Of a DNA stretch of 64,000 nucleotides, positions 14,978 through 60,300 are shown in pieces. Source of the stretch: Shigella phage ESh24; sequence record ON528734. The stretch is one strand, 5' to 3'. How positions within the stretch are numbered: position 1 is the first letter of the stretch; each line of letters begins with the position of its first letter. The notes under the pieces are model-generated. The model ran no database searches, was not told the DNA's origin, and saw only the letters and a program-made list of their open reading frames with translations. The translations under genes and the position numbers were made by a program.

Positions 14978-14983
14978 TCGTAA

Positions 14984-14997
14984 GGGGCTTCGGCCCC
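14984..14997 (+). terminator. rho-independent terminator after hoc (GGGGC-TTCG-GCCCC followed by T7)
   Basis: GC stem with a TTCG tetraloop followed by TTTTTTT. Confidence 0.75.
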
Positions 14998-15066
14998 TTT
15001 TTTCATTTTGAAAGCACACAAAACACAATCAGAAAATGATGTATATAATGGCACCAACTCGATAAC

Positions 15067-55441: not shown

Positions 55442-55618
55442 ATGACTACATTAATTATTTGGTTTGACGAAAATGAAGAAACATACTGCGTGAACATTGG
55501 AGAAAGCCCAATGCCAGAATTTGAATCTTCGGATAAAAACTCGGTTGTATCTTGGGCTGAAGGTTATAAAGCAGCAAAAGGCGATGTTGAAATAGTTTAC
55601 AAACTATCCGGAGTATAA
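55442..55618 (+). CDS. hypothetical small protein (58 aa)
   Basis: Not in the ORF track; ATG at 55442 preceded by GGAGAAATAA; product MTTLIIWFDENEETYCVNIG... Confidence 0.5.
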   Translation: MTTLIIWFDENEETYCVNIGESPMPEFESSDKNSVVSWAEGYKAAKGDVEIVYKLSGV

Positions 55619-55661
55619 TACTCTCGTGGATTTTAAATCTTAATTAACCTAAGGAAATACT

Positions 55662-56255
55662 ATGAACACACTGAAGAAAATTGTTGAGTTTATTCGCACT
55701 AAACTTGGTTCTGCTATGGCTAAAAATCTATCTGTTGAAGAGCAGTATACTGCTGCGGCAGCAAAATTGCTTGATAAAATTAAAGATCTAAAAACTGCTT
55801 CTGTTAAATCTATTAATGAAGAAAAGCGTATTCGTGAACTTATTGTCGAAAAGAATAAGCAGGCCGAATCAAAAGAGCGTGAAATTCGCAAGCTTCTTTC
55901 CGAAGGTCAAGATGTAACAATGCATGCTAAACTCGGTTTACTATATCGTCGAACAGCTGAGCAGTTGACTACTAAAGCTGATGGTTATGCTGAAATGCGA
56001 ATTGAAATTGCCAAGAAAGTAGTTGAGTTAGATGATGCTCGCCAAGAACTTGCAGTTAAATTGGAATATATCCGTGAAACTCGTGCAGCAAATGCCCTTG
56101 GAATTAGTACTGCTGATGATGTAGTTGAAATTGCAGCGCTGACTAAGGTTGATATTGAAGATACTCTTGCCCGAGTTGAAACCTTTAATGGCAATATTTC
56201 CGGGGTTGAAACTACCTCTGCCGATGTTCAGGAATATATTAATTCTCTGAAATAA
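55662..56255 (+). CDS. hypothetical coiled-coil protein (197 aa)
   Basis: Heptad-rich, charged; AGGAAA RBS; followed by a GC hairpin. Confidence 0.6.
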
Positions 56256-56261
56256 CGATAA

Positions 56262-56275
56262 GGGGCTTCGGCCCC
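56262..56275 (+). terminator. stem-loop (GGGGC-TTCG-GCCCC)
   Basis: GC hairpin after the 55662 gene; U-tract is weak. Confidence 0.45.
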
Positions 56276-56296
56276 TATTACTTGGAGTAAGTAGGA

Positions 56297-56905
56297 ATGA
56301 AAATGCAAAGTGATTTCAATTCAATGTTTGAAGAGTTCCAAAGACATGTTGATGTTCCAGACCAATTATTAAATGCTCTTAAACGTATGGCAGAAGGGCG
56401 TAATTATTATTGGGGTTCTTCATATGAAACTGATGAAAGTCTTTCTGGAAGATTTTCTAGAGGTAAAAAGTCTTTAATACGTCCTGGAATACTTATTAAC
56501 AGTATTGAATCAATTCATTTATTAACATGTGATTTTGACGTTGAATTTACTGATTTTGTTTCTCCTGAATGGACGGTCTGTTATTTAAACGACGATTATG
56601 ATTATCTTGGCGTTTATAGTTTAAGTGATGCATGGTTTAAACGTAATTTACAAAAGTCAAATTTATTCTATATTGATACTACTGTAAAGTTTCAGGGCAA
56701 GAAATATTTCTTTACTCTTATAGTTGATTCTGAAACGAAGCATGAAAATAAACGTATTCTTAGTAAAAAGAATATCTTAACTATTGTTGATGATCTTTTT
56801 GATAAATTCGTAGAAAATCCCAATTTTGAAAGCGATTTATTACTAGAAAAATTTGTTAAGGAATGTAGAGAATATGTCAAAGCCATCAATGTATCTTCCA
56901 AGTAA
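56297..56905 (+). CDS. hypothetical protein (202 aa), first member of a shared 3' junction family
   Basis: ORF ending ...EKFVKECREYVKAINVSSK; its 3' end carries the RBS and start of the next gene. Confidence 0.6.
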   Translation: MKMQSDFNSMFEEFQRHVDVPDQLLNALKRMAEGRNYYWGSSYETDESLSGRFSRGKKSLIRPGILINSIESIHLLTCDFDVEFTDFVSPEWTVCYLNDDYDYLGVYSLSDAWFKRNLQKSNLFYIDTTVKFQGKKYFFTLIVDSETKHENKRILSKKNILTIVDDLFDKFVENPNFESDLLLEKFVKECREYVKAINVSSK

Positions 56906-57266
56906 ACCCTTAAAGTATGAATTAAAGCGTCAGATAATTTCTACTGATGTATTAATAGGTCCTGTTATACTCATATCATTTGTAATTCTATTGATTATTG
57001 GAGGTGTTTTAGATGTTATGACTGATATTGATTCTGGCGAAATACTGGTATTAATGCTAATTCTTCCATTAATAGTTCCACTTTTATTAGTACCTGTAAA
57101 TTGGGTAGGATACTGGTATCAAGGAAGACATTATCGTAAACGCGTACGTGATTGGAAAGCACAGTGTGAAAAGATTAAAAAGGAACACCAGCTTAAACTT
57201 GCTGCGTATGAATTTAATGAAATTATGAAATTTGTTAAGGAATCACGATGCAAAAGCCAAAACTAA
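56874..57266 (+). CDS. small two-helix membrane protein (e.x family paralog)
   Basis: Start set at MSKPSMYL (AAGGAATG junction module); two hydrophobic helices; C-terminus ...FVKESRCKSQN. Confidence 0.6.
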   Translation: MSKPSMYLPSKPLKYELKRQIISTDVLIGPVILISFVILLIIGGVLDVMTDIDSGEILVLMLILPLIVPLLLVPVNWVGYWYQGRHYRKRVRDWKAQCEKIKKEHQLKLAAYEFNEIMKFVKESRCKSQN

Positions 57267-57610
57267 ATAAAGTCAAATATTCGCTTCCTGAGTCATTTTT
57301 AATTTTTGCTGTGGCGTTGGCTGCAGCTCTTGCGGGTAGTCTTTTTGGATTGTTAATTGACTGTCTTATTTTAAACATTGACGGCACAGTAAATATAATA
57401 GAAGTTTGGAGTGAACTTCACTATACTAAAATTATTTCATTATTTTCATTCTTTGGTACCATGTTATATTTTCATTATGATAATTTTAAAATAAATTGGC
57501 AAAGAAAAAAAGATTACAAAATACAATTAAAAGAATATAATAGTTACATGTCTCATATTGAAAAAGAATCAATGGAAGAGTTTGTGAGTGATTGTAGGAA
57601 AATCAAATGA
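57248..57610 (+). CDS. small two-helix membrane protein (paralog)
   Basis: 120 aa; two hydrophobic helices; C-terminus ...FVSDCRKIK. Confidence 0.6.
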   Translation: MQKPKLNKVKYSLPESFLIFAVALAAALAGSLFGLLIDCLILNIDGTVNIIEVWSELHYTKIISLFSFFGTMLYFHYDNFKINWQRKKDYKIQLKEYNSYMSHIEKESMEEFVSDCRKIK

Positions 57611-57747
57611 TTTTAAAAACTCGCTGGTATGATTTAGATGATGGGGATGATGGCATTTCAGTTGATAGAGTTGATTGGAATGGTTGTTCCAAAGATATGA
57701 AAAATTTGTTGATTAGGGAGTTTAGAATGGGATTATCAAGCAACTAA
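57607..57747 (+). CDS. hypothetical small acidic protein (46 aa)
   Basis: ATG overlaps the upstream stop (ATGA); not in the ORF track. Confidence 0.4.
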   Translation: MILKTRWYDLDDGDDGISVDRVDWNGCSKDMKNLLIREFRMGLSSN

Positions 57748-57775
57748 GCCATCTATTATAACAGATGATAAATTC

Positions 57776-58077
57776 GTGTGTATTCATAATGGTCGCGCTA
57801 AGTTAACGAACGCTGATTGGTTCACAGATAAAATTATGATTCTGTGGTATATTATTAGTCTTCCTGTGACATCATTCGTATTTTACTTTTTTATAAAAAA
57901 TCCAATGGGCAGAATAGGAGATTGGATTCTTTTAACCATACTTGTTAATATTTTTACAGCAGCAATATTATCTGGGATATGGTACACGTTCATTGAAATG
58001 CCATGGCGGCTACGCAGACAACAAAAGATTTTTGATGAAAAGAAATATACTCAAAATTTAAATAACTTTATCACTGA

Positions 58078-58096
<19 letters not shown>
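57776..58096 (+). CDS. small membrane protein (paralog)
   Basis: 106 aa; hydrophobic helices; C-terminus ...FITECRKLQ. Confidence 0.55.
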
Positions 58097-59065
<969 letters not shown>

Positions 59066-59069
59066 AGTT

Positions 59070-59099
59070 GTTTACTTTCTCCTAAAACTGTGATAGTAT
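59070..59099 (+). promoter_or_regulatory. early-type promoter (GTTTAC, 18 bp spacer, TAGTAT) inside a 7 bp inverted repeat
   Basis: ACTGTGA/TCACAGT flank the -10 hexamer. Confidence 0.45.
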
Positions 59100-59136
59100 A
59101 TTCACAGTTACTAATTAAAATATTTAAAGGAAACAC

Positions 59137-59718
59137 ATGAAAACGTATAAAGAATTTATCGCTGAAGCTTCTGTGGAAAAGGCCAAAGGCATTAATAAAG
59201 ATGAGTGGACCTACCGTTCGGGAAACGGCTTTGACCCTAAAACGGCTCCTATTGAACGGTACTTAGCTACAAAGGCTTCCGACTTTAAAGCCTTCGCTTG
59301 GGAAGGACTTCGTTGGCGTACCGATTTAAATATTGAAGTTGATGGACTTAAATTTGGCCATATTCAGGATGTTGTTGCTAGTAACTTAGACGCAGCTTTT
59401 GTTAAAGCCGACGGTGACCTTCGTCGCTGGAATTTAAAACTGTTCTCTAAACAGAAAGGCCCGGTGTTTGTGCCTAAAGCTGGTAAATGGGTTATTGATA
59501 ATAAATTAGCTAAGGCTGTCAACTACGCTGGTCTTGAATTCGCCAAGCACAAATCATCATGGAGAAGTCTTGATGCAATGGCCTTCCGTAAAGAATTCGC
59601 CGAGGTTATGACTAAAGGCGGCTTTAAGGCAGAACTAGATACCTCTAAAGGTACGTTTAAAGACGCTAATGTTCAGTACGCTTACGCCGTTGCTAATGCA
59701 GCCCGCGGTAATTCTTAA
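59137..59718 (+). CDS. ipIII: internal protein III-like (capsid-targeted)
   Basis: 193 aa; N-terminus MKTYKEFIAEA; position immediately after e. Confidence 0.75.
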   Translation: MKTYKEFIAEASVEKAKGINKDEWTYRSGNGFDPKTAPIERYLATKASDFKAFAWEGLRWRTDLNIEVDGLKFGHIQDVVASNLDAAFVKADGDLRRWNLKLFSKQKGPVFVPKAGKWVIDNKLAKAVNYAGLEFAKHKSSWRSLDAMAFRKEFAEVMTKGGFKAELDTSKGTFKDANVQYAYAVANAARGNS

Positions 59719-59826
59719 TAAAGCCGAGTTCGAACCTGGTAATTGATAAATACAGAAACGGGCAATTCATGTGTGTGAATTGCCTCAAACTTAAAGAATA
59801 AAACTATTTACATTTAAAGGAAACAC

Positions 59827-60300
59827 ATGAAAACATATCAAGAATTTATTACTGAAGCAGCTATTAATTCTCAAATTATTGCTGAATCTTTTACTGATCT
59901 TTTGAAATTTAAAAAAGGACAGAAAATCACTGCTGTATTGGATGATGGTACAGAAGTTGAGATGGATGTGCAAGGATATAATTATGCAGTAGATGGAAAA
60001 CTGTATAATAAATCTCATGCTAAATTTGATTCATTTGACGACTTTGTTAATACAGTTGAAGATGAAAAAACTCGTCGATCCATTGCAACTGGTGATGCTA
60101 AGGTTCTTATGGCACATGGTCATGAACGCATTCGCGCTAAACAGAATAAAATGGGTGAAGATAATTTTGCATTAGTCGGTTATCAATCTGGTAAACAAAC
60201 CTATGGTTATCAGCGTACTGCTACCATGTATAACAAAAATGGTAAAATTGCCTTTGTAAATAGTAAAGGTTCTATTCAGTACGTTAAATCATTCAAATAA
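59827..60300 (+). CDS. internal-protein-like protein (157 aa) at the ipII position
   Basis: N-terminus MKTYQEFITEA; shares the 15 nt upstream sequence ATTTAAAGGAAACAC with the 59137 gene. Confidence 0.7.
   Translation: MKTYQEFITEAAINSQIIAESFTDLLKFKKGQKITAVLDDGTEVEMDVQGYNYAVDGKLYNKSHAKFDSFDDFVNTVEDEKTRRSIATGDAKVLMAHGHERIRAKQNKMGEDNFALVGYQSGKQTYGYQRTATMYNKNGKIAFVNSKGSIQYVKSFK

Follow-up and report, generated by a model that had tools for sequence, protein, structure and literature searches.

Why do four consecutive genes of a T-even phage end in nearly the same short peptide, and why do the codons for this peptide double as the ribosome-binding site (RBS) of the gene that follows? The question is raised by the genes e.5, e.4, e.3 and e.2 of Shigella phage ESh24 (sequence record ON528734). 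We analysed a 64-kb stretch of this DNA, hereafter called the window, and use T4 gene names throughout. An earlier inspection of the letters alone, here called the sequence-only reading, had interpreted the four genes as a cassette array of small membrane-protein genes, built by repeated duplication or recombination at a short junction sequence. The explanation we favour, and regard as probable, is that of an accessory block in which a C-terminal motif is under selection, the motif codons are used a second time as RBS, and the tail helix that carries the motif would serve for docking.

A shared C-terminal motif and the codons that encode it

All four peptides of the form F-(V/I)-x-(E/D)-(C/S)-R claimed in the sequence-only reading are present in C-terminal tails. 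The e.5 product ends in EKFVKECREYVKAINVSSK, that of e.4 in MKFVKESRCKSQN (last residues FVKESRCKSQN) and that of e.3 in EEFVSDCRKIK, while the tail of e.2 carries FITECR. A strict search with F[IV]x[ED][CS][RK] gave four matches among the 182 open reading frames (ORFs) of at least 40 amino acids (aa) on both strands of the window, and all four sit 3-11 residues before the stops of e.5, e.4, e.3 and e.2. A scan of 583 ORFs over the rest of T4 (~105 kb) revealed no annotated gene with F[IVL]xxC[RK] among the final 22 residues. Restricted in this way to the e.5-e.2 C-termini in window and T4, the motif is therefore real, far beyond chance. Regarding the count of four genes, e.5, e.4 and e.3 are intact, but e.2 is split in the window by a +1 frameshift. 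Intact e.2 is a 162-aa ORF in T6, HY01 and contigs from IMG/VR. Here an additional T at 57733/57734 leaves a 46-aa ORF and an orphan part with two transmembrane (TM) helices, which ends at 58096 and has no good start codon; relatives align over 445 nucleotides (nt) to the 446-nt window query at this site. The two pieces, in different frames, match phrog_2203 (166 positions) at 1-43 and 62-166, so that the gene belongs to this family and is disrupted. The lesion in T4 e.2 is a different one, a -1 in an A-run (A5 vs A6), and the old T4 reference NC_000866 has a second +1 that is absent from the newer assembly OZ035787. Given these frameshifts the annotated 102-aa T4 e.2 is a truncated product, and the distinct lesions in window and T4 indicate that e.2 was inactivated repeatedly.

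For comparison, loci anchored on e.6 were taken from IMG/VR and GenBank. The tail motif was found in five groups beyond Tequatrovirus: in Mosigvirus (FIMECR in e.5, FVKEIR in e.4, FIKECR in e.3, and also FITECR), Dhakavirus (FIAECR/FIKECR, FIKEVR, FIKECK, FLEYCR), Marfavirus (FIKHCR, FLKEIR, FIKYCR), the Jiaodavirus KPV15 (FIKYCR, WIRSCR, WIKEMK, FIAKCR) and an Enterobacter-phage-like (Karam-like) contig (FVDQCR, FIKNVR, FIKQCR). The general form F-[IVL]-x-x-[C or hydrophobic]-[RK] is present on all four products. When the e.5 family is aligned across the groups, the only invariant columns are M1, one N and F..CR. Carriers of the motif span at least 10 otherwise dissimilar PHROG families, among them 2607, 8788, 2604, 2330, 2203, 9796, 32323, 22510 and 9798, and comprise soluble as well as two-helix membrane proteins; the function annotation of their PHROG matches is 'unknown function' in every case. 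Gene order was the same at 13 of 13 loci, with e.6 followed by a soluble motif protein and then by membrane motif proteins, one to three in number. In the T-even phages of enterobacteria as a whole, purifying selection acts on the motif at the protein level.

The same DNA has a second use. AAGGAA, located on the K-E codons, lies upstream of the starts of e.4 and e.3, and AGGAAA, located on the R-K codons and followed by ATG as had been noted for the last two junctions, precedes e.2 and nudE. The Shine-Dalgarno (SD) sequence occupies two different registers relative to the motif peptide. The motif DNA had been described as both RBS and start of the next gene; the RBS does overlap it, but the start codons are found 4-11 nt past the motif. 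The beginning of the array had been placed at 56853, which is the TTG of a mechanically called ORF; e.4 begins at the ATG at 56874, as in T4. Of 98 distinct contexts, 67 have the downstream SD within the motif or touching it, at offsets of +6/7 or +15-18. The motif is kept in 13 DNA contexts in which the next RBS is found 28-39 nt downstream, and also where there is no coupled downstream gene (FLEYCR, FIAKCR). Its codons vary, with TTT or TTC for F, TGT or TGC for C, and AGA, AGG, CGT, CGA, CGC or CGG for R. The best reading is that of a selected peptide whose codons were co-opted as the RBS of the next gene: K, E and R abound in the motif and in the residues following it, and because of this, purine-rich codons (AAG-GAA, AGG/AGA-AAA) double as SD. 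The block is a clean natural case of dual coding, with a functional peptide and the next RBS in the same codons.

From e.5 to nudE, stops and starts overlap by 32, 19, 4 and 4 nt. Translational coupling of e.5-e.2 is therefore probable, and it would keep the subunits co-expressed. As to the start of nudE, the gene is annotated with 151 aa in T4 from an ATG (58078) formed by the e.2 motif codons (GA-ATG-C), and with 146 aa in T2 and T6 from the ATG after AGGAAA (58093); the RBS fits the shorter form better. In the literature searched by gene name (e.2-e.5, nudE) we found no functional study of e.2-e.5, nor a paper on their shared C-terminal motif or the dual coding of their RBS. As far as we found, the shared motif, the range of families and genera that carry it and its second role as RBS appear undescribed.

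Junction repeats and variation in gene content

Is it the peptide that is maintained, or the junction? A dedicated cassette-shuffling junction, kept as a module for duplication, deletion and exchange with the peptide as a mere passenger and in analogy to promoter early stem-loop (PeSL) elements or the capsid-targeting leader of internal-protein genes, seems unlikely to us, and the repeats and the gene content of related phages bear on it from both sides. The 16-mer AAATTTGTTAAGGAAT has two exact copies in the window, as had been stated, with the first at 56849 and the second at 57228-57243 rather than at 57226-57241. The window holds 13 exact direct repeats of ≥16 nt, AAATTTGTTAAGGAAT among them, and 47 repeated 16-mers were observed where order-1 Markov simulations led us to expect ~1.6. 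The e.5/e.4 and e.4/e.3 junctions also have ATGnCAAAGCCA in common, which together with the 16-mer speaks for shuffling.

Cassette content does differ between related phages, as proposed. About 67 of 513 Tequatrovirus records (~13%) are without the e.2 interior, and e.2 is exactly absent from T2, IME340, PP01 and ZN18-type genomes. The gene nudE directly follows e.3 in T2, IME340 and a ZN18-like contig, and e.3 ends there in DCRKLK, the e.2-type ending, which places the crossover inside TGCAGGAAA, common to the e.3/e.2 and e.2/nudE junctions. The presence or absence of e.2 is the only clear instance of gain or loss through a junction, and the short junction repeats that result from dual coding have acted as crossover at least this once. 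Motif genes at scattered sites in other genera are likewise to be expected from shuffling; in KPV15, for example, a 102-aa gene lies between nudE and e, and a Mosigvirus has an e.2 homologue at another site. A further difference in content is found in UFV06-type phages, which carry an in-frame e.4/e.2 chimera, fused inside TM1 with a 6-nt overlap.

Several points argue against a dedicated junction. Inter-junction DNA identity amounts to just 9-16 nt and is lost between genera, where codons drift and residues stay, and in the e.5 family the motif is invariant even far from any junction RBS. Other natural rearrangements have their breakpoints away from the junctions, namely the UFV06 fusion, a deletion in a Mosigvirus e.3, the loss of the e.4 hairpin and the e.2 frameshifts. 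The junctions have no promoter or terminator of the PeSL type, and no extra copy or foreign cassette was seen at a junction among the sampled genomes. Of the cassette array joined at a short sequence, the e.2 crossover in TGCAGGAAA thus holds, while the motif is conserved as protein and the other losses occurred elsewhere. Short repeats of this kind become breakpoints of gain and loss in phage hyperplastic regions.

Two of the rearranged genes were noted individually. The Mosigvirus e.3 (locus L010, 6601-6700) has a 250-nt internal deletion with start and tail retained, and in an e.4 variant of 69 aa (P0159) both TM helices are lost in frame.

Protein architecture and a putative docking helix

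Three of the products had been described as two-helix membrane proteins. Topology prediction gave two clear hydrophobic helices and a basic C-tail for both e.4 and e.2, but in e.3 one strong segment is accompanied by a weaker second one; e.5 has no TM segment. The T4 annotation already lists e.3 and e.4 as predicted membrane proteins, and one record names an e.3 homologue 'e.3 conserved hypothetical, predicted membrane protein'. Full-length matches were obtained for e.5 with phrog_2607 (residues 1-202, E 9e-109), for e.4 with phrog_2604 (residues 1-130, E 3e-70; PF26873 is found on 98 homologues) and for e.3 with phrog_2330 (E 4e-60).

Pairwise BLASTP of the four proteins aligned the tail only, plus a weak full-length alignment of e.4 and e.3. 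For the latter pair hhalign gave 89.8% (E 1.8e-6) over the full length; with the motif trimmed the two were still colinear over 100 columns (E 6.7e-4, 27% probability, from small alignments of hydrophobic regions). A 121-aa membrane protein of Marfavirus matches phrog_2604 and has the same relation to e.4 as e.3 has. A profile of e.4 and e.3 run against 1.84 billion representatives returned only 9 proteins, all of them T-even e.3/e.4 relatives or fragments, with no more distant relative among them. From these comparisons e.4 and e.3 look like distant two-helix membrane paralogues, which may have been derived by tandem duplication. As to the relatedness expected of a duplicated array, the proteins are related through their tails, and e.4 and e.3 look similar over the full length; for e.2 and e.5 the tail is the sole connection to the other proteins.

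The tails are also the most constant part of the membrane proteins. Among 88 e.4 and 37 e.3 cluster representatives from Tequatrovirus the C-tails were least variable (0.15-0.16 bits), in contrast to the TM1-loop-TM2 part (0.65 bits in e.4, 0.45 bits in e.3), and the constraint on the tail reaches well past the 19-32 nt of frame overlap. A relaxed constraint on the anchor or diversifying selection on the periplasmic side may account for the variability of TM1-loop-TM2. The variable parts comprise e.4 residues 28-76 (56955-57101) and e.3 residues 17-76 (57296-57475), with 3-4x the variability of the tails; length variants have 125-131 aa in e.4 and 120 or 124 aa in e.3. In helix modelling, F and C/I/V fell within ~45 degrees of the direction of the hydrophobic moment in nearly all tails, and the Arg of the motif at the polar boundary. 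The motif would accordingly form the hydrophobic core (F and C/I/V/M at i, i+4) of an amphipathic cytoplasmic helix. The AlphaFold2 (AF2) model of e.5 has a tail helix at residues 181-196 (predicted TM-score, pTM, 0.62), and that of e.4 has helices at 24-50 and 56-129, a helical hairpin and a long helix. A Foldseek search of the e.5 model against the PDB gave nothing below E 0.01 (TM ~0.2), which leaves no basis for assigning a function by fold.

Could each protein instead carry the peptide as an independent signal, be it a tag for processing or degradation, a helix for membrane association or a place where Cys or Arg is covalently modified? We think this quite unlikely. A short terminal peptide common to unrelated domains is reminiscent of sorting or degron tags, the I-x-E it contains is similar to the T4 prohead-protease site and to EFIxE of the internal protein (IP) capsid-targeting leader, and the DNA of the e.2 tail and of the ipIII leader is identical at 14 of 18 nt. 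Yet this likeness to the capsid-targeting sequence (CTS) is not significant after eight comparisons (5/500 shuffles for the best pair, 26-411/500 for the others), and integral membrane proteins are improbable as capsid cargo. An I-x-E protease site is not general either, because conservation of the E is confined to Tequatro-, Mosig- and Dhakavirus (others have FIKHCR, FIKYCR, FIKQCR, FIAKCR). In the e.4-like lineage I, V, M or S takes the place of the Cys, which runs counter to Cys chemistry and favours a packing position; a reactive or metal-binding Cys was rejected on account of these residues.

To a by-product of generic RBS and chance, with the ends of unrelated proteins shaped by in-frame AGGA or AAGGA, we give hardly any credence: AAGGAA or AGGAAA, 5-9 nt and an ATG make up an ordinary T4 RBS, the motif favours AGG/AGA for Arg and AAG-GAA, and T4 early genes often have overlapping starts, but SD-like sequence does not encode the best conserved residues (F, I/V, C), the SD is found at two offsets from the peptide, Arg is kept as CGN, the codons change across genera while the protein is conserved, also without an overlapping SD or RBS role, and the motif occurs in none of many other overlapping T4 gene pairs.

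We return to the selected motif on a docking helix. In favour of this model are the conserved gene order, the conserved tails next to variable hairpins and the hydrophobic pattern at i and i+4; the tail helix would provide a common docking or assembly surface. Docking would most likely join soluble e.5 to its membrane partners in an inner-membrane complex, or all of the proteins to one shared partner. Several points weigh against it. A complex or docking function is purely something that we infer. The e.2 and e.3 genes are often lost or broken, so that individual members are dispensable, counter to an obligatory complex of fixed stoichiometry; phage growth can do without e.2 and e.3 at least. 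Conservation at the extreme ends could partly stem from overlapping frames and RBS, and the Arg of the motif shows an excess of AGR codons (55 of 85). The AF2 models of e.5 and e.4 are both of low confidence (predicted local distance difference test, pLDDT, 58 and 64). The alignments behind hhalign are small, and with the motif trimmed e.2 reached just 0.1-0.4% against e.3 and e.4, to which tail and architecture are its sole link.

A bolder version, which we consider improbable, takes the C-terminal F-I-K-x-C-R helix as a portable docking tag with which at least 10 otherwise unrelated T-even accessory proteins, both soluble and membrane-anchored, would attach to one common inner-membrane assembly or host target; an ORF recombined in frame upstream of the tag would gain the docking helix and, at once, the coupled expression of its neighbours. 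T4 is the best-studied large phage, yet the function of e.2-e.5 is not known, and a tag that links at least 10 uncharacterised protein families, soluble with membrane, provides a concrete and cheap handle on their partners. A docking module, if true, would account for the diversification of accessory functions at the membrane in T-even phages, and a portable tag would amount to a plug-and-play system for evolving them.

Genomic neighbourhood and known phage systems

The window is a Tequatrovirus genome in an orientation opposite to that of the T4 GenBank record. The region is colinear with T4 (93.5% identity), and 56200-58600 matches 513 phage records at 80-99% identity. The genes e.5, e.4, e.3 and e.2 are known T4 ORFs (T4p125-128), with PF26873, PF26876 and, doubtfully, PF26896 as their newer Pfam entries; the identity of e.6 between genera is 60-98%. 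The gene map (Table 1) confirms the position of the block directly upstream of nudE and e. The block consists of non-core accessory genes between e.6 and nudE/e. No late-promoter core was found inside the e.5-nudE run, and two such cores precede e. Searches of e.5, e.4, e.3, e.2 and e.6 against Pfam-A (a copy without PF26876), NCBIfam and PDB sequences gave nothing significant, and Rfam had no match in 55500-59200 at E ≤ 0.1.

Table 1. Features of the region from e.6 to e, in window positions
Feature	Position	Strand	Basis and remarks
e.6 homologue	55662..56255	+	T4 annotation; phrog_1203; upstream anchor gene outside the motif set
GC-rich UUCG hairpin, e.6/e.5 interval	56259..56276	+	no T-run downstream
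e.5, soluble, 202 aa, FVKECR in C-terminal helix	56297..56905	+	phrog_2607; PF26876 on homologues
16-mer copy 1, AAATTTGTTAAGGAAT	56849..56864	+	codes KFVKE of e.5; holds AAGGAA RBS of e.4
e.5 motif codons F-V-K-E-C-R	56852..56869	+	
e.4, 130-aa two-helix membrane protein	56874..57266	+	phrog_2604; PF26873 on homologues
16-mer copy 2, AAATTTGTTAAGGAAT	57228..57243	+	codes KFVKE of e.4; holds AAGGAA RBS of e.3
e.4 motif codons F-V-K-E-S-R	57231..57248	+	
e.3, 120-aa membrane protein	57248..57610	+	phrog_2330; T4 annotation
e.3 motif codons F-V-S-D-C-R	57581..57598	+	R-K codons AGGAAA are RBS of e.2
e.2 N-terminal fragment, 46-aa ORF	57607..57747	+	phrog_2203 positions 1-43; T4 alignment
+1 T insertion breaking e.2	57733..57734	+	GGGATTATC here vs GGGATATC in relatives
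e.2 remainder, other frame, two TM helices and C-tail	57776..58096	+	phrog_2203 positions 62-166
e.2 motif codons F-I-T-E-C-R	58067..58084	+	TGCAGGAAA here and at e.3 end
nudE (e.1), Nudix hydrolase	58093..58533	+	final gene of overlapping run
e, T4 lysozyme (context)	58571..59065	+	late-promoter cores TATAAATA at 58537 and 58550

Some further patterns were noted around the locus. The 18-nt hairpin TAAGGGGCTTCGGCCCCT with its UUCG loop occurs at 56259-56276 and again at 14981-14998; the copy at 14981 follows a 376-aa gene, has a T-run after it and is terminator-like, whereas the copy next to e.6 is without a T-run. A second tandem family comprises small acidic proteins of 65-105 aa (phrog_899 and phrog_4882, PHROGs of unknown function) at loci L004 (3231-4025) and L005 (2183-3221) and, downstream of an e.3-like gene, at L019 and L021. 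Its members end in G-x-W-[VI]-S-S-S-x-x-C followed by TAAGGAAAnnnnATG, another reused junction with a conserved C-terminal peptide, in this case with Cys as its last residue. Some GenBank names of e.3, e.4 and e.6 homologues, for example 'sulfurtransferase', 'host specificity protein' and 'DNA primase', are not backed by a family match and look like propagated misannotation.

How does the block compare with known phage systems? Its nearest counterparts are the IP genes with their capsid-targeting leader and the PeSL cassettes. The sequence-only reading had named superinfection exclusion, lysis timing or membrane-level anti-defence as candidate functions. Imm, Sp, RI and holin-type two-helix proteins, which act in superinfection exclusion and lysis control, are small non-essential phage inner-membrane proteins, and the holin of T4 is t. 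By analogy the membrane proteins of the block may be likened to class II holins, with a two-helix hairpin and a charged cytoplasmic tail, and the block adjoins the lysozyme gene. Imm, Sp, RI and t lack the shared tail motif, however; there is no sequence match to known families, and the e.5-nudE run, unlike e, is without a late-promoter core.

PeSLs are non-coding units of early promoter and stem-loop in T4-type hyperplastic regions, proposed to mediate indels and shuffling at gene boundaries (PMC2839356, PMC4122927). Both are short conserved boundary sequences in plastic regions, but the e.5-nudE junctions are coding and bear an RBS. PeSL-type junctions were rejected as a candidate, as the four junctions have no terminator-like hairpin and no strong promoter, the sole hairpin being located between e.6 and e.5.

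The IP genes ipIII and ipII are located downstream of e. The two genes share an exact 23-nt repeat, ATTTAAAGGAAACACATGAAAAC (59122-59144 and 59812-59834), which spans the RBS and initial codons (MKT...) and is the known capsid-targeting-leader module. According to PMC3012670 and PMC4122927, which cite Repoila et al. (1994), IP genes have a conserved N-terminal capsid-targeting leader that acts in scaffold targeting and is then cleaved by gp21. Membership of the e.5-e.2 products in the IP/CTS family (N-terminal MKTYxEFIxE and gp21 site) was rejected, with the motif being C-terminal and the DNA likeness to the ipII and ipIII leaders no stronger than in shuffles once multiple testing is allowed for. 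The IP leader is N-terminal and found on soluble capsid cargo, in contrast to the C-terminal peptide of e.5-e.2 with its several membrane carriers. In both systems, though, diverse small proteins have only a short conserved terminal peptide in common, coding DNA and RBS are repeated between neighbouring genes, and the locus is polymorphic among related phages.

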